From Phyllosticta citribraziliensis (lineage: Eukaryota): DNA of 64,000 nucleotides. Location of the stretch: assembly GCF_038025025.1 (NCBI RefSeq), contig NW_027117346.1:1116001-1180000 (forward strand), in the 5' to 3' direction. Shown piece after piece: positions 15,518 through 64,000 of this stretch. A program made the translations under genes and the position numbers. The notes beneath the pieces are model-generated. The model was not told where the DNA came from. It was given only the letters and a program-made list of their open reading frames with translations, and searched no databases. How positions within the stretch are numbered: position 1 is the stretch's first letter; every line of letters begins with the position of its first letter.

Positions 15518-17921
15518 ATGGGAGATCCTTCTAATACCGACCTAGACCGTATCAACTCGTGGGCTCATGCGCATGCCTCAAACCGCACCCAGAGACCTGA
15601 CCGACGCCCACCTCAGCCGCTGAGGTCCACGCCCAGCAATGGCACAAATCCTTCTGACAAGTCGCCTGCCTCGCAGTCCGACCCCAACTCAACCTCCACC
15701 TCCCGCCAACCCCCAGACAATACCCAGCTTGATGGAGCTTCGCCTGCCGCCGTAGAAGGCAACCCCAAGTTGCCTCCCCTCACTCGCGCCAAAAATGGCA
15801 CTTTTCGATTCGTCAAACATTTCATCGATGCCCTGTGCTACAGCTGGGTGAATGTGCTCCTGGTCTTCGTGCCCATCGGCATAGCTACCAAGCCTGCTCA
15901 CATGTCCGAAGAGCTGGTCTTCTCCATGAACGCCATTGCCATTATCCCGCTCGCCGGCTTGCTTAGCCACGCCACTGAGAGCGTGGCATCAAGGCTGGGA
16001 GACACTCTCGGCGCCCTGCTCAACGTATCCTTTGGAAATGCTGTCGAGTTGATCCTGTTCATCATTCTTCTGGCTAAGGACCAGATTCGTGTTGTCCAGG
16101 CTTCGCTGCTGGGCTCCATCCTGGCAAACTTGCTTCTGATTCTGGGCATGGCCTTTTTGCTTGGTGGCCTGCGCTTCCAGGAACAAGTCTACAACAACAC
16201 CGTGACAAACATGAGTGCCTGTTTGCTTAGTCTTGCAGTCATGAGTCTGCTCTTGCCGGTAGGTCCTTGTTGATTTGTTCGACAAGACTGCCCATTGCGA
16301 ATACTGACCACAAACAGACGGCCTTTCACGCCTCCTTCTCCAACGAGGCGAATGCAGATGTCAAGACTCTCAAGGTCAGCCGTGGCACCAGCGTCGTGCT
16401 CCTCGTCGTCTACGTCCTCTACTTGCTGTTTCAACTCAAGTCCCACTCGTACCTCTACGAAAGCACGCCCCAACACATTATCGACGAGGAGTCTCATCCT
16501 GGTGTGCTTGCCGACATGCTCAATTCCAGCTCATCCGACTCGTCCAGCTCTTCTAGTGACTCTAGCGACACCGACACGTCTTCTGGCTCGAACACGACGG
16601 CGAAACGGATCAAGCGCGCCTTTCGACACCGCAAGCGAAGAAAGTCGAGCGCAAGCTCGAGGACTAGCCCGTCCATGCCCTCGGCAGCATCCGTCATCAC
16701 TAGCCCTTCGGTCGAGAATCACCGCGCATACTTTGACTCTCAGGCACACGCCAGCTCAGGCCAGACTGATGGGCCGTCTCGCGGCGAATCGGCCCTTGGT
16801 GCCATCCTGAGCGGCGATGAGGCCGACAATGACGAGGAGAAGCCCGAAGGCATGCCCCGCGTACGCGACTTTGAACAAGGCTCCTCGGTCTCTCCTCCTG
16901 TCGAAAAGCCCCGCAAGAAGGAAAAGAAGAAGCACAAAAAGTCGCGCTCCCACAAGGCTGCCGAGGGACAGTTGAACGAAAAGACTGCCGGAGTCAGCGA
17001 GCATCCTCAGGGCTCTGCAAGGCAACAAAAGGCCGTCGATCGTCCACACGTCGGATTCGCAGATGGCACAGCCGAAGCAGCACCCGAGACTGCGACCCAA
17101 AACAAGCGCCCGTTCAACATTCGTCAGCTTTCCGGACGACCCCCAAGGCTCCCCTCGCTCCTGTCCAACAATGTCTTTGTCACACCGTCGTCCAATGTTC
17201 CTCAGACGCATGCAAACACGGCTCGTGGCGCAGGATTGCGCCGCACAGCTTCTCTTCCGGATCGCCTGAACCGACCTTCGCCGGCAGTTGCTGGCCCACC
17301 AGCTCCTGGCCAGGTCAGACCCGTCAATTCCGAGCACGAGTCGCAGGAAGAAGAAGAGCACGGCGAAATGTCGCGCACGTGCGCCATTGTCATGCTGGTC
17401 ATCTCGACTGGACTGGTTGCCGTCTGCGCCGACTTTATGAGTGACGCCATCCAGCCTCTGGTCGAGACGACGGGTGTCAGCCAGGCCTTTATCGGTCTCA
17501 TCATTCTCCCCATTGTCGGCAATGCTGCAGAGCACGTCACTGCCGTGACAGTGGCCGCAAAGAATAAAATGGACCTTGCAATTGGTGTCGCCGTGGGCAG
17601 CAGTATTCAGATTGCCATCTTCGTCACTCCAATCATCGTACTGCTGGGCTGGATCATGGGCAAGGAAATGTCGCTCTACTTCAACATTTTCGAGACCGTC
17701 TCGCTGTTTGTGACGGCCTTTGTCATCAACTTTTTGATTCTCGACGGCCGCAGCAACTATCTCGAGGGCTCCCTGTTGATTGCGGCCTACATTATCATTG
17801 CGTAAGTTGGATGCACGTTGCTAGACATGGTATAAACTAACTCGTGTCTAGGGTTGCTTCCTTCTTCTATCCCGACGGCTGCGATGCCAGCCAGATCGGT
17901 GGCTCGACTGGATCTTGCTAA
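15518..17921 (+). CDS. Ca2+/H+ antiporter (CAX/VCX1 family) with a long cytosolic loop
   Basis: Alpha-repeat motifs LNVSFGNAVELI and LPIVGNAAEH, plus GSSIQIA and FQLKSH. Introns 16259-16317 and 17802-17851. TAA at 17919-17921. Confidence 0.9.
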
Positions 17922-51605: not shown

Positions 51606-52672
51606 ATGTGTATCGCCATTGTGACGACCGCACATCCAGACTACCCCTTTATCCTCTTAAACAACCGCGACGTACGCCCACTTGCGCTCCTCTCCTGCCC
51701 CTCGACTCCCGTTCTGACTGATTGCAGGAGTACCTTCGCCGCCCCACCGCTCCGGCCCAGTGGTGGGCGCCTCCACATGACCACGTTCTTGGTGGCTACG
51801 ACCTGCACCGCCCCGCCCACGGCACCTGGTTGGGAATCACCCGCCAGGGCCGTCTGGCCGTCCTGACCAACTTCCGTGAGGAGGGCGTTGTCATTTGTGA
51901 GGAAAAGAGCCGCGGCGCCATTCCCAATGCGTGGTTGAAGCTGCCACCCACCTCGACCGAGACGACGGCCGACTTTGGCCAGCGGCTGGTCGAGGAAGAG
52001 CAGGTCAAGGGCGTCGGTGGCTTCAGTCTACTGTATGGTCGTCTCCAAGACGTTGTTCAAAAGCGTCACGACGACGGTCATGCCAATGGCGCAAATAGCA
52101 GCGGTTCAAAGCACCGCAAAGGTCTCGCCATCCTCTCCAACCGCACGCCCGACGTCCACGGCTTGATTTGGGTCGCCGGCGAGCCGGGCGAGACTCACGC
52201 CCTCAGCAACTCGCATTACGGCGACAACTCGTGGCCCAAGATTGTCCGCGGCAAGGAAGCCACCAAAGCCGCCGTCGAAGCCAGTGTGGCTGCGGGCGAG
52301 ACGCGCGACCAGCTGCTCGAGCGCCTCTTTGGCGTGCTCAGTCAAGACAGCTTGCCCAAACACCGGTCCGGCGAAGCTTGGGAGATTTATCTGCGCCAAC
52401 TGCGCAACAGCATCTTCATCCCAGACATTGGCCGCGAGGGCGACGGTGTCGTGACCAAGCCGACGGAGGATATGTCCTTTGCAAAGAACGGAGATGAGAC
52501 TGCGACGACCGCGGCCAGCGGTATCTACGGCACCCAGCGGCAGTCGCTAGTGGTGGTTGACCGCGACGGCAACGTCACGTTTGTCGAGAGATCTTTGTTC
52601 GATGCACAGGGCAGGCCCGTTGAGAGGGGCAAGGGGGACCACAAATTTGAATTCCAAATTGAGGGATGGTGA
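51606..52672 (+). CDS. TANGO2/NRDE (DUF833) family protein
   Basis: MCI start, NRD|E motif formed across intron 51672-51727, GTWLGITRQGRLAVLTN, SRG, LSN..WPK, YGTQ. Confidence 0.9.
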
Positions 52673-53467
52673 TGCTGGCATTTTGGAGTTGAGGAGTGCT
52701 TCATTGTCAAAGATACCTCCTGGAGCGTTCAGTACAGCACAGCACAGCAGGCGCATGAATGCACGGTTGAATTGCCCTTTGGCTGAGTCGGTGCCCAACT
52801 GGATCTTGGTATTCTCGGTTGTCTTGTGTACATGTAGAATGGCCCGCCCCGTCCAAAGTGGTACAGAACAGACGTGCAGTGCAGTATGCATGCCGGCAGC
52901 CGGCAGCGGGCATACTGACACTGCATCAGCATACTCTTCTTACCGCCACACTCTTCTCAGACAATGTACAAAGCTCTTGCCAACTCTCCACTTTGACAAA
53001 TGGTCTTTTCTGCCGGTGATGTTGGGCCCTCGACGAATTTGAGACTATTAAACAACAGCAGCATTGAGTAAAGCATGCTTACGTATCTCTTGCCCCTGTC
53101 TCCTCTTATCTCAAAGGATACCCACAGCGGCCCCAGCACGTAGCCGAGTTGCCTTCTCCTGATTTGCGTGGATGTACGTGGAATCCTTTGCTTACGCTTC
53201 ACCGCTGCTCCGTATGATGCTTCCTACGCGGCGCCAGTTAGCCAGCCAGCCAGGTGCTGATAGACTGTCATGACTCCATCTATTCATTCACCTGCATGCA
53301 CGTGTCCTCTATCCAGCATGTGCAGCCGTAAAAGCTTCGCCTGGAGATCCGCTGACAAAATGCTCGTAATCACGTACCATCACCAAACGCTGCATGCGCC
53401 TCTCCGCAACCAAGTCCCGCCGAACCGTCGATAAAACGCAAAAACGCCGCCTCCCCTCCAACAACAA

Positions 53468-53625
53468 GCGGGAGTGGCCTAGTGGTTAAGGCGCTGCTTT
53501 CCCATCATTTGGTTTCGCCTCTAAGCGAAAGAGACAAGCAGAAACCGCGAGGTAAGTGCCCGCCTTCCGCATGGGGATGAATGTCGGCTAACGGGCGCTC
53601 TACAGTTCGAATCTTGCCTTCCGCA
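53468..53625 (+). tRNA. tRNA-Gly(CCC) gene with two intervening sequences: a canonical 37/38 intron (53505-53535) and a spliceosomal-type GT-AG insert at 53/54 (53552-53605)
   Basis: Acceptor GCGGGAG/CTTCCGC + A73; D stem GCCT/AGGC with loop AGTGGTTA; anticodon stem CTGCT/AGCAG with CCC at 53501-53503; T stem GCGAG/CTTGC with loop TTCGAAT. The three exons sum to 37+16+20 = 73 nt. G1-C72, C2-G71, G3-C70 and A73 fit eukaryotic tRNA-Gly. Confidence 0.88.
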
Positions 53626-53629
53626 CATC

Positions 53630-53635
53630 TTTTTT
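53630..53635 (+). terminator. RNA polymerase III terminator (T6) of the tRNA gene
   Basis: TTTTTT begins 5 nt after the discriminator base, followed by a second T5 run. Confidence 0.8.
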
Positions 53636-54125
53636 GGCTTTTTGACGGCTGGAAAAGTGACTGGGGAGAGGGGGCTCGTTCAAGGTGTTTCTTCTGTCCG
53701 GATTATCATTTTGGTCTTTGAGATAGCGGAGGGTTTAGAAGCTGCAACCGAGTGAGCCACAACGGGAGTAGAGAAGAAGCCTACAGGTGGGAAACTAGAA
53801 CAACTGCTTCTTTTCGTTGTCTCGTAGAGGAGCTCATCACCAGGAGAGGGAATATTTGGTAGTCTTCGGAGGCAGTCCATTTGGTTTTTTGGGACGCCGT
53901 TTGATCCAATGGCGATGACGGACGGGGTTTTTCTTCGTCTTCCTCCTCCTCTAATGCAGTATATCTGTTAAGACCCCTTTTGAGTTTCGCGGCCCAGGTA
54001 GAAAGCTCTTCACACCCCATCCAGCAGCCCCCGCCTCTTCTCAGGTTTTCATGCCGTGGCATCCATGGAGCCCAAAAGAAATGGAGTAGCAACGTCCCTC
54101 TCACACCACACCCTCTCTTAATCCT

Positions 54126-54785
54126 CTACTCCCTCTGCAACACAACCGTCAAGCCCATCAAGCCCAGCATGACCGTCTTCAACCACGGGTACTCGCTAAG
54201 CAGGATCGTCACGTATCCGACCCACGGGATGAAGCCAAATACGCTGCCAATGACGTCCTTTTCGCGGTTCAAAAACGACTGGCCGCGCGCGTACAGCTCC
54301 GTGTCGTCGGCGACGTTGTTGTCGCCCTTGGTCAACAGGCGCAGAGGGTTGGGTCTAGGTACGTCAGTTCATGGTTCTTCAGCCAGCCGACTCCAATCCA
54401 CCACTGTTTCTCCCCCTCCATTCTCCTCTCCGTCTTTGCAGCGACCCAAGAAAAGAAGGAAAGCAGGCCCAACTCACCCTCCTCCAAACCTCCTCACGAC
54501 GCGATGCACAATCGGAATGTCCTTGCCGCGCACGTTGTACACGACGACCTCGCCAATCCGCGTGTCCATGGCCCGATTCCACAGGAACAGCAGGTCGCCG
54601 CGCTGGAACGCCGGCTCCATGCTGCCCGACAGCACCACGACGATCGGCGACGGCGAGTTGGTGGCCACCGACAGCCCCTTCCACAGCATGAACGCCGTGC
54701 TGAGCACCAGAGCGAAGTTGAGGATCTGCGCCGCGATCTGCCGCGACTGCAGCCCCGCGAGCGGTCCGAGCAGGTCGTTGAGCAT
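54126..54785 (-). CDS. SEC11: Signal peptidase complex catalytic subunit
   Basis: [40 protein letters not shown]. Intron 54477-54355. Confidence 0.95.
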
Positions 54786-55403
54786 CGTATCGTGGGCCTG
54801 GTTGCCGTGGTTTGCTTTCGTGTCGTCGCCGAGGGCGGTACGCGCGCGTTCGTTGCGATGGAAGAGGCGACTAGTCGGGCAGAGATGCGTGGGCCAAAAC
54901 TTGGCGAGTGGATTTACGGAGCTGCTCGGTGGGCAGGTGTGTTGGTCGATTGGTGTGTCTTGTGTGTTCGGCCGGCGCGGCCGTCAACGCTGTGGAATTG
55001 ATGAAGCCAGGTGTTGACAAGGGTAGCTCGGTACAGAGGTAGGTGCGCAGGGCAGCGCCGCCGCGGCGGAGATCCCCGCCAAGAGTTACTATGCCTTTAA
55101 ATACTCGCGGCGTCAAGAAGCCATTTGCAAAGACTGTTGACCTTGAACAGTGTCAATTGGTGCTAAATTCACTTTTGAATTTCTCAACGCTCTACAGTAC
55201 AGTCCACTGCTCCAGTTTCCGTGTTTGACGTCCTTCCCTTAAAGAGGCCCTCATGATCGATGCAAAGGTATCTTTTGCCCCTTCCTCGTCCAATATCTAA
55301 CCACCCACCGCAAAAATTAAAGCCCTAGGGCGCCAGGCTTTCCTTGCTTCGTTTCGAGGCCAAGTAAAAGACATTCGCCAGGCGTAGACAGAACCAAAAA
55401 TCA

Positions 55404-61100: not shown

Positions 61101-64000
61101 TTCGTCTTTGAACGCCATAGGCGAATTGCTCTGGCTTCTCAACACGACTAACGTCTACGAGGACCTGGTCCGAGTCGGTCAGCTCAGTCAACCCACGTTG
61201 GAAGGCCGACCTAGCCCTGTGCATCATACAGTTCTGGCCAAGCTCCACGAGATTCAGCTTCGTGGCTGGATGGTTCAGTGGCTTCTCCTAGGCGACGCAA
61301 TGGAGTCCAACCCAGAGTTGTTTCCGAATCCGAATGAGGACAAGTTTGAGTATCTTCGCCACCTGCACCATGCCTCTGGTGTTCGAGGATTCTGCGCTGC
61401 TTCAAACAAGCTTCTTCTCAGGGTCACGAAAGATCAGCTTTTGCGCTGGTTCAAAGACGGTGAAATCGCGGATGTTGATACGCGAGACACGGTGCTCTGC
61501 CAGGTCCTCTACGACTTATACAACTTGTTTTGCTTCACAAAACCAGCAGACAAGGCTGACCATCCCAGCGAATATGATCCGATGGATCAGAAAGCTGCTC
61601 TAAAGCTGCTCGATTTTGTCATGTACCAGACGCGTAAAGTAAGCCTCAAAGACTTGCACAAGACGCAACTTGGTGCTTCAATCGACGTGGTACATGGCCA
61701 TCTTGCCCGAACCAAGCCAGCAGGGGCCGACGATCTTGCGTTCAACAGGTTGAAGTACATGTCGTTCATCAAGTCGCCCATCAGAGATACCGACCTATAC
61801 CGCTGCGCAAGGGGCGTCGGGGCACTATCGACAAAGCCAATAGCCTCCAAAAACGCTCGGATCGCATCAAAAGGATGGTACTTTCTCATGGGCAGCCTTG
61901 CGCTGAACCGTTTCAGGTCCCAGAATCAGAAGCGACAGGCTCCCGTTCCCACAGAAGATCTCAACATTGCTTCGGCGTTCTTTGTCCAAGACCTAGAGTA
62001 TGATTCTGAGCGCTGGGAGACTTGGTACTTGCAAGCGCTCTCATACGACTACCAAATCGATGAGATGGTGGCGTGGTCGGCTGAGAAAGTCAACAGAAAT
62101 GACCCTGATTTAATACAACACCAGAGGGCAGCGATACATTGCTACGCAATGGCAGTGGCCACGGCTATCCGACACGCGGACTCTTCCGACAGAACCCAAG
62201 ACAAATTGGCGCAACTCTATGCCGACTATGGCATGAGAATGTATGCATCTACGAGGGATCCGTTTGCAATGCAGGTGTTCGCTTTCAAGGAAGCCGAGAC
62301 CAGGTTCTTCAGCAAGCATCAGGTTTTGAGGGAGGCCCCATTCAAGCCCATGTCCGAATATTCGGCCTGGAATTTCGCTGCTGGACTGTTCCAAAGGGCA
62401 ATCAATCGCAGGCCCGACTACTGGCTCAATTACTACATGCTGGGCAAGTGTCGTTGGAAAATTCAACACAGGGTCTATCATTCCCACCTCCAGGTCGCGA
62501 CTGAAGCTACTCTGAATGCGTTCAAACGAGCTATAGAGGAGCTTCCAGAAAAGAGGGGGTCAAGGGATGCAATCCTCGAGCCACATTACAAGCTGCTATC
62601 GGTGCTCCACAAAATGGTCCACGCGAAAGACGGACATATGAGGTCGCCATACCACGCCATGGTAGATCTTCAGATCACGCCCTACGCGAGACAGGTCCCC
62701 ATGCCTCTTTCCAAACATAGTCATATTATGGAGGGTGATCACGAGGCATGGGACGACTACTGTCTCAAGGTGTTGAAGGTCATTCGGCAGGCCGACAAGT
62801 CCAACTGGCATCACAGAATGACCGCAAGGGCTGCCCAGATCCAGTATGGCGATCCACGACCAGAAGAAGCCTTCATGTCGGCCCTCGCCGCCAAGACTGA
62901 GCTCACACAGCAAATATTCACCAAAACAATGCAGCTACAAGTATGGAAGCCAGAGTACGAGCGTTTGGGTCGTCATTTTGTCTACACCACACGCTATACG
63001 ACATTCTTCATCGAGCTGCTAGCTCAGACAAATGACAGAGCAGGAATGGAGGCACTGGCCAAGAGAGTGAGACGACGAAATCACGAATTCTACCAGCACG
63101 CAAGACTTTGGCAGTCTCTGTGCCAAACCTATCTCAAGGTAAGTGTCTACCCCCAAAGGCAGACCTCTTTTGTTTCTAACATTGCTCGTAGATGCTTCGA
63201 AAAGCTGCAAAGATTCCCGAAGGCCATGAGGATGCTGTCTTCAAGGCCATTAATCACGAAGAATGGCTCTTCTGGGCCGGCAAACTCGAAGTGTGGTGTC
63301 GAACGCAGGGACACACGTCGCCTGTCTATGAGGTCCTCACAGAAGCCATCGAGCTTCGGCGCTTGAACAATAACCTCATGAAGGCAACGCTGATTGACGA
63401 CCTCATTGGCGACACCTACGCACTGCTGTACCAACAGGTCGTGCCGGAACTGATGGCCGAATCTGGTCCTGCTCCCACATCTGAAACAACGCAGCCTCAA
63501 ACTGGTGCTCTGGCAGCTCCTGAGCGGACCAACATGATGTCCATGCACAACATTATGAACATGGACGGAACTTCGGATCCTCAGGGACAAAACCCAGCAT
63601 TCCATGTCTTGAACCTGCAGTCCTCGGCACAGCCGCAGCCAACACCAGCGGAACCCCCCACGACAACAGCCGGTCCCAAGACCCGGGTTAAGGGTGTCGG
63701 GCGTCGAGAGCTCATGCGCAAAGCTGATGCCGCCGTCACCCGTCCAGCCGCTGCTGCTTCCACAACAACCATTCCCATACGCGCAACGCCGACACCAAAG
63801 TCGGTGCCGCCCGCAGCTGATGCCACTGCCGGTGCAGCTGAGGATCGGGAAAAGGTTAAGGAGGAGCCAGAAGCAGAAGGCGAAGCAGAGGTAGAGGGCG
63901 AGGCAGAGGCCGAAGCCGAAGGCCAGGACGAGCAGCAAGAAGCCGCGCAGGAGACGGCAGAAGAGGGGACGCAGGAGGAGACGGAGACGGGGACCGGCGC
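58142..64000 (+). CDS. HIR3: Histone transcription regulator 3 (HIR complex; Cabin1-like), 3'-truncated by the window
   Basis: M|SAFKALNIE..DNTKEIQIEEALKLYQ, LYKNHG-like SYKNHGQF, ILEPHYKL, DKSNWHHRM, QVWKPEYER.GRHFVYT. Introns 58145-58203 (GC-AG) and 63139-63191. The frame is still open at the window end. Confidence 0.9.

Follow-up and report, generated by a model that had tools for sequence, protein, structure and literature searches.

The window, by which we mean the whole 64,000-nucleotide stretch of DNA analyzed here, is ascomycete-like in character: its GC content is 51 to 60%, and the nearest Atlas clusters of a neighbouring ChAPs-family protein belong mainly to Ascomycota. Upstream of the locus of interest lies a plus-strand ORF, ending at 52672, which from its translation we take by eye to be TANGO2-like; the other flank is occupied by a minus-strand gene (54126-54983), named in the same way and presumably a signal-peptidase SEC11-like gene. 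Between them stands a nuclear tRNA-Gly(CCC) gene with two interruptions: a canonical tRNA intron, and a 54-nt insert at the border of the T stem and T loop that has GT..AG ends and contains a second copy of the tRNA 3' end. The features of the locus are as follows, with the basis of each in parentheses.

53224..53377, minus strand: 154-nt intron of a minus-strand transcript, GTACGT..CTAAC..TAG (joint 53222/53377 in the contig of sequencing run X1)
53468..53625, plus strand: tRNA-Gly(CCC) gene with two interruptions (ARAGORN after in silico removal of the insert; Rfam tRNA match); acceptor stem GCGGGAG/CTTCCGC, discriminator A, normal D arm (sequence)
53501..53503, plus strand: anticodon CCC (sequence)
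53505..53535, plus strand: canonical tRNA intron, 31 nt, between positions 37 and 38 (ARAGORN)
53547..53551, plus strand: 5' strand of the T stem, GCGAG (sequence, Rfam, ARAGORN)
53552..53605, plus strand: GT-AG insert, 54 nt, between tRNA positions 53 and 54; starting with GTAAGT, with CTAAC at 53588-53592, and ending in CAG
53559..53571, plus strand: internal echo of the tRNA 3' end, made of CCCGC (T-stem 3' strand, 3/5 identical), CTTCCGC (acceptor 3' strand, 7/7) and A (discriminator) (repeat search, shuffles, end of the Rfam alignment)
53606..53625, plus strand: exon 3, made of the T loop TTCGAAT, the T-stem 3' strand CTTGC, the acceptor strand CTTCCGC and the discriminator A
53630..53635, plus strand: T6 run, candidate RNA polymerase III terminator, 5 nt behind the gene (sequence)

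ARAGORN reports no gene in the unspliced DNA, either by default or with introns allowed; with 53552-53605 removed in silico, it reports a 74-nt tRNA-Gly(ccc) with a 31-nt intron at 37/38. The Rfam tRNA model matches 53468-53571 with 38.6 bits, against a gathering score of 29, and this match ends on the internal copy; with E values up to 5, Rfam found nothing besides it between 53000 and 54200. For annotation, this means that ARAGORN is blind to the unspliced gene and that Rfam ends the gene on the wrong 3' end. The gene is presumably transcribed by RNA polymerase III. The T6 run is the expected terminator of that polymerase, and no run of four or more T was read inside the tRNA gene; a putative A box (TGGCCTAGTGG, 53475-53485) and a putative B box (AGTTCGAATCT, 53604-53614) were assigned by eye against the general consensus forms.

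Four public sequencing runs that contain the locus were used as Logan contigs, X1 and X2 being labelled as organism A and X3 and X4 as organism B. That these are RNA runs is a guess, so the presence of the locus in them is no evidence of its expression, and the contigs are strandless. They were aligned to 53200-53900 at 80% likeness, and uncovered stretches (upstream of 53377 in X2, and 53223-53376 in X1 and X2) were excluded as evidence. In X1, one contig of 3,372 nt joins 53222 to 53377 (CT..AC, cut +1). The spliced minus-strand transcript spans the whole tRNA gene antisense, and may be part of a long 3' region of the SEC11-like gene (54126-54983). Before 53291, the contigs of X3 and X4 continue with letters resembling window positions 53190-53222, which implies either that organism B lacks about 68 nt of the minus-strand intron or that it splices differently. 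The branch regions of the tRNA insert (GGCTAACGGGCGC, 53586-53598, plus strand) and of the minus-strand intron (GGCTAACTGGCGC, 53231-53243, minus strand) are identical at 12 of 13 positions, with a blastn-short E value of 8.3, and in both CTAAC lies 13 nt from the intron end; this likeness may be due to chance, or may hint that the 3' part of the insert was copied from nearby.

Intron signals of the insert

Judged by its sequence, the 54-nt insert looks like an mRNA-type intron. The arrangement GTAAGT-N(20-50)-CTAAC-N(6-25)-YAG has three matches in the window against 0.10 expected, and none of 100 shuffles reaches three. The match at 63139-63191 (53 nt) behaves as an mRNA intron, in that its removal opens the whole of a 400-codon test stretch, compared with 275 codons when it is present; removing the match at 17802-17851 (50 nt) lengthens the open stretch only from 200 to 222 codons. 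Among the blastn-short matches listed, no second copy of the insert appears within the 64-kb window, the others being 8 to 13 nt long with E values of at least 2.

Introns of the endonuclease type are defined, in the excerpt of PMC10485636 used here, by a 4-bp helix flanked by two 3-nt bulges or by their location at 37/38, and, according to the same excerpt, 37/38 introns are the only ones that the heterotetrameric TSEN of animals and fungi removes. A bulge-helix-bulge structure was considered for the insert and rejected: in a scan whose geometry is a simple model, none of 16 registers gave a 4-bp central helix, the best reaching 2 of 4 pairs. The same scan of the 37/38 intron gave 1 of 16 registers with a 4-bp central helix and a 4-bp anticodon stem, which is bulge-helix-bulge-like.

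Excision at the exact GT..AG borders would restore GCGAG|TTCGAAT and a normal cloverleaf, and the canonical intron would be taken out separately, presumably by the tRNA splicing endonuclease. Removal of the insert would be expected to depend on the spliceosome.

An in-register echo of the tRNA 3' end

The letters and coordinates on which the preliminary description of this locus was built are exact: after GCGAG the unspliced gene reads GTAAGTG-CCCGC-CTTCCGC-A (53552-53571), and after CAG it reads TTCGAAT-CTTGC-CTTCCGC-A (53606-53625). The 10-mer GCCTTCCGCA occupies 53562-53571 and 53616-53625, each copy standing 10 nt past a splice border, and the start-to-start spacing of the copies is 54 nt, which is the length of the insert. 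A repeat search between 53300 and 53800 returned one family of direct repeats, with two copies of 10 nt. Over the tRNA part, 12 of 20 positions are identical in register (1/7 in the T loop, 3/5 in the T-stem strand, 8/8 in the acceptor strand and discriminator), and AG also stands in register at 53550-53551 and 53604-53605. The last 34 nt of the insert agree with the 3' trailer at 10 of 34 positions, a chance value that is reached by 34,785 of 100,000 shuffles. The match of the repeat itself is far beyond chance: when the insert was shuffled, 1 of 200,000 trials produced an in-register run of at least 10 with the 20 nt of exon 3, and 45 of 20,000 produced a 10-mer that also occurs elsewhere in the gene, whatever the offset. 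Over the 64-kb window, GCCTTCCGCA has 2 matches versus 0.30 expected, and at least 2 were seen in 6 of 100 shuffles.

Comparison with one relative, organism B, indicates that the region is constrained. Aligned to window positions 53291-53890, the X3 contig shows 75 substitutions and 25 gap letters over 600 aligned nt, the differences being individually listed, in positional order, up to 53697. Within 53452-53640 (189 nt), the single difference is 53570 C>G, inside the internal copy, and divergence starts at 53641; intact 31-mers amount to 0.44, where 0.47 is expected under one change only. The insert keeps 53 of its 54 positions, and exon 3 and the T6 run are kept as well. The probability of at most one change in 54 nt is 0.024 at the rate of the upstream flank (0.099, 16/161) and 0.0003 at the overall outside rate of 0.18; for both introns together it is 0.0014 and 9e-7, respectively. 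These low values argue that the insert and the canonical intron are both constrained. It had been suggested beforehand that a relative sharing the intron be examined for the internal copy; organism B has the insert and retains 9 of the 10 positions of the copy, which shows the match to be more than incidental. Though retained, the internal copy is no better protected than its surroundings, and its identity to the 3' end could be maintained by selection instead of being a matter of history. Since the whole insert is conserved and the comparison is with one relative, history and present selection are not separable by it.

We would give about an even chance to the reading that the intron arose through duplication of the last 20 nt of the gene, and that the echo is the footprint of this event, now held fixed by selection; the register, and a spacing equal to the intron length, are what favour a duplication footprint. 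The last 20 nt, from T loop to discriminator, would have come to stand twice, 54 nt apart, either by tandem duplication of the 3' end together with its trailer, the trailer part having since diverged, or by a duplication of 20 nt with 34 nt of filler DNA between the copies. The T loop of the upstream copy would have been rebuilt into GTAAGT, the spacer would have gained CTAAC and CAG, and splicing would now throw away the upstream copy. Such a path would be multi-step, and would include loss of the first terminator if the trailer was duplicated. We infer both the duplication and this order of events.

A duplication of the 3' end had already been offered in the preliminary description as a possible origin, and the evidence bears it out in part. 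The register, the 54-nt spacing and the in-register AG agree with it; the T loop, the trailer and the splice junction do not. The upstream 'T loop' GTAAGTG has 1 of 7 letters in common with TTCGAAT and the next 13 nt have 11, a pattern that is not one of neutral decay after duplication, so strong remodelling must be assumed. Since the 34-nt part agrees at chance level, any trace of a 54-nt tandem duplication is confined to the tRNA part. In the mature sequence the exons meet as GAG|TTCG, with AG|TT in place of the AG|GT of the classical duplication model, so the duplication did not provide the donor GT. As to precedents, introns born by duplication are described as retaining likeness to the adjoining exon in the accessible part of PMC3265369, and direct repeats spaced by about the intron length are described around many introns in that of PMC11782384.

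A wider reading, which we put forward tentatively and think rather doubtful, adds function to this history: the gene would need both the spliceosome and the tRNA endonuclease, its T-arm intron would have come from duplication of its own 3' end, and the copy would act as a co-transcriptional stand-in for the acceptor strand. The retained copy would then keep the splice sites accessible, in a host that is apparently a polymerase III transcript. If this were true, the locus would offer a datable and mechanistically readable birth of an intron in a non-coding gene.

The same preliminary description held that the unspliced RNA can close an alternative cloverleaf with the splice donor as its T loop, and that this decoy end might be kept to direct folding or processing of the precursor. 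That such a cloverleaf can be drawn is confirmed by the Rfam tRNA match (38.6 bits), whose alignment ends on the internal copy and makes 'alternative cloverleaf' a fair description. The 4 of 5 T-stem pairs that had been counted are correct without a bulge; in the Rfam alignment the stem GCG(a)GG/CCCGC has 5 pairs with a bulged A. In sequence, GCGAG (53547-53551) falls between the ideal complements of the two 3' strands, and pairs with CTTGC via one G-U and with CCCGC via one mismatch or a bulged A.

That the internal copy, however it arose, is selected for pairing with the 5' acceptor and 5' T-stem strands upon transcription seems to us unlikely, although it is still a live rival to the duplication footprint. 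The exons would be held in a tRNA-like minihelix with GUAAGU shown in the loop, and the branch site, the 3' splice site and exon 3 would be single-stranded until the spliceosome or RNase P acts. Acceptance of the decoy form by the Rfam model and the ability of GCGAG to pair with both 3' strands agree with this, as do the two T-to-C differences (CTTGC to CCCGC), which lead to a perfect 5-bp stem in the bulged register of Rfam, the 9 of 10 copy positions kept in organism B, and the constraint on the insert. Folding of nascent chains at nine lengths, with energy models that are blind to proteins and kinetics, predicts the decoy cloverleaf as the minimum-energy structure for the chain ending at 53571 (-36.9 kcal/mol), but only for that one; other folds win in chains ending at 53580 and 53590, and the insert hairpin is predicted from 53605 on. 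The minimum-energy fold of the full precursor (-55.7 kcal/mol; whole-precursor stability unremarkable, z -0.72) is a normal cloverleaf with the real 3' strand, from whose T loop the insert projects as a hairpin. Forcing the decoy acceptor stem yields -47.4 kcal/mol, a cost of 8.3, and pair probabilities at full length are 0.0 for the seven decoy pairs compared with 0.94-1.0 for the real ones. When folded by itself, the insert is predicted to close into a hairpin that runs from its first G to C52 (-22.9 kcal/mol, z -2.5; 2 of 200 shuffles as good), in which CCCG of the echo pairs with CGGG (53592-53595) and CCGCA lies in a weak apical stem. These models thus lend no support to a stable decoy in the complete precursor, where the copy is predicted to be locked in the insert hairpin; the decoy cloverleaf could form only briefly, during transcription. 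In addition, the sole substitution in the 189 conserved nt, 53570 C>G, removes the G1-C72 pair of the decoy cloverleaf, and the nascent fold with the G of organism B is not the decoy cloverleaf; an RNase Z cut behind the decoy would moreover be expected to sever exon 3. A role of the copy in folding or processing is weakened by the folding results and by the change at 53570.

The duplication footprint also competes with an order of events in which a foreign intron came first, entering at AG| by reverse splicing or as a mobile 'introner', and the 13-nt likeness was patched in later, by short gene conversion or template switch from the real 3' end. The perfect splice signals and the 41 of 54 nt that are unlike gene or trailer are as such an entry would have them, and reverse splicing is how, in the excerpt of PMC5855946 available, fungal U6 introns are generally held to have arisen. 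In its branch region, GGCTAACGGGCGC, the insert matches the minus-strand intron, with the same 13-nt distance to AG, but at the high E value given above. We regard this order as improbable: no other copy of the insert is among the matches listed for the 64-kb window, and a conversion patch placed exactly in register needs an explanation of its own.

Probable excision in public sequencing runs

In X2, one contig of 1,435 nt joins 53551 to 53606 and skips exactly 53552-53605, that is, the 54 nt with their GT..AG ends. The joint is ambiguous by 2 letters (53549-53551/53604-53606) and has 173 nt on its shorter side; over 470 nt the contig carries no other differing letter, and the 37/38 intron is kept. 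A template switch between the two 10-mers was examined as the source of this joint, and would sit within the repeats with 10 shared letters. As the joint lies at the GT..AG borders with 2 shared letters, it is not such an artefact. The insert is kept in X1, which is silent on plus-strand splicing because an antisense RNA cannot lose a plus-strand intron. Two weak hints can be added: X1 shows an exon border at 53377, and it is there that the X2 contig ends, as if X2 were also RNA; and in organism B the contig of X4 breaks off at 53551 without a loose end, where X3 runs on, as would be expected of a fork at the 5' splice site. We consider it likely that the 54-nt insert is excised at the RNA level.

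The converse would be that there is no splicing of the insert, that the strain of X2 has DNA without the 54 nt, and that the insert-bearing gene is disabled or decaying. With the run types being guesses, a clean passage of the X2 contig through the joint and an X1 contig that keeps the insert while showing a minus-strand splice could be read in this manner. The precise 54-nt loss would then be the sole difference over 470 nt, and DNA shortened precisely at the GT..AG borders would in its turn imply that a spliced RNA had served as the intermediate. The insert also predates the divergence of organism A from organism B and has kept 53 of its 54 positions, unlike a dead gene, and the stop of the X4 contig at 53551 points weakly in the same direction. 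There is in our view little probability left for an absence of splicing.

Less probable by far is that the true gene ends at 53571 with the T arm GCG(a)GG-TAAGTG-CCCGC, the downstream 20 nt being a relic. The best Rfam alignment does stop there, but the loop TAAGTG is without the T-loop consensus present in TTCGAAT, no T run occurs before 53630, ARAGORN rejects the unspliced form, organism B keeps exon 3 and the T run and changes position 72 of the supposed acceptor, and the X2 joint discards that end. A chance resemblance of the internal copy, although several other 10-mers of the insert recur in the 64 kb, is the most improbable of these explanations in view of the in-register (1/200,000) and any-offset (45/20,000) shuffles.

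Relation to known introns

To our knowledge, eukaryotic tRNA genes are taken to carry only endonuclease-type introns at 37/38, and a literature search without most subscription journals found no published report of a spliceosomal intron in a tRNA gene. A GT-AG intron in the T arm would add tRNAs to the short list of non-mRNA hosts of spliceosomal introns. With its in-register echo the locus preserves, as few do, an internal clue to the origin of an intron; as the intron is short and conserved and its mature flanks are fully known, duplication, insertion and a functional decoy should be distinguishable here.

The excerpt of PMC12530127 consulted treats the three classes of nuclear introns as unrelated to one another and as bound to different substrates. 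Spliceosomal introns are known, according to the accessible text of PMC5855946, in fungal U6 and in U1, U2 and U5 snRNA and rRNA genes; among these, U6 is transcribed by polymerase III, and in S. pombe its intron is removed by the spliceosome. The insert resembles these fungal U6 introns as a GT-AG intron with canonical 5' splice, branch and 3' splice sites in a fungal gene for a structured non-coding RNA. Unlike the introns of snRNA and rRNA genes, it has a tRNA as its host, which is absent from the list in that part of PMC5855946, and the gene carries a canonical tRNA intron besides. Whereas U6 introns are there said to be 'otherwise not conserved in sequence', with reverse splicing put forward as their origin, the insert holds an echo of the 3' end of its host.

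With intron gain by AGGT tandem duplication (the Rogers model; ATP2A1 in PMC3265369 and potato RdRp in PMC4974935, as far as the available excerpts go), the insert shares a partial in-register likeness to the exon, an intron length equal to the repeat spacing, and the restoration of the original sequence expected when one copy is removed; it differs in its AG|TT junction, in a likeness that extends over 13 of 54 nt, and in a host that is a tRNA and not a coding exon. Its 10-nt direct repeat with a spacing equal to the intron length recalls the border direct repeats of PMC11782384, again as given in the part consulted, but stands 10 nt inside each border and on a functional strand of the host RNA. 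An interruption outside 37/38, and more than one intron in a gene, are also known from the non-canonical tRNA introns of archaea and red algae described in the excerpt of PMC10485636; these are cut at bulge-helix-bulge motifs, in contrast to the 0 of 16 registers, the GT..AG ends and the CTAAC found here.

Scans of metagenomes gave no match for the 5' half (25 nt) or the 3' end (22 nt) of the gene. A scan of genome contigs with a 22-mer of the D arm had as its sole match a tRNA-like gene in an Aenigmatarchaeota MAG (L001, 293-420), which has a long interruption after the anticodon region, receives no call from ARAGORN by default, and is unrelated to the insert. Within the window, the segment made of the anticodon and the canonical intron (53498-53523) forms a 26-nt inverted repeat, 73% complementary, with 53769-53794, located 245 nt downstream; this is probably a matter of chance.
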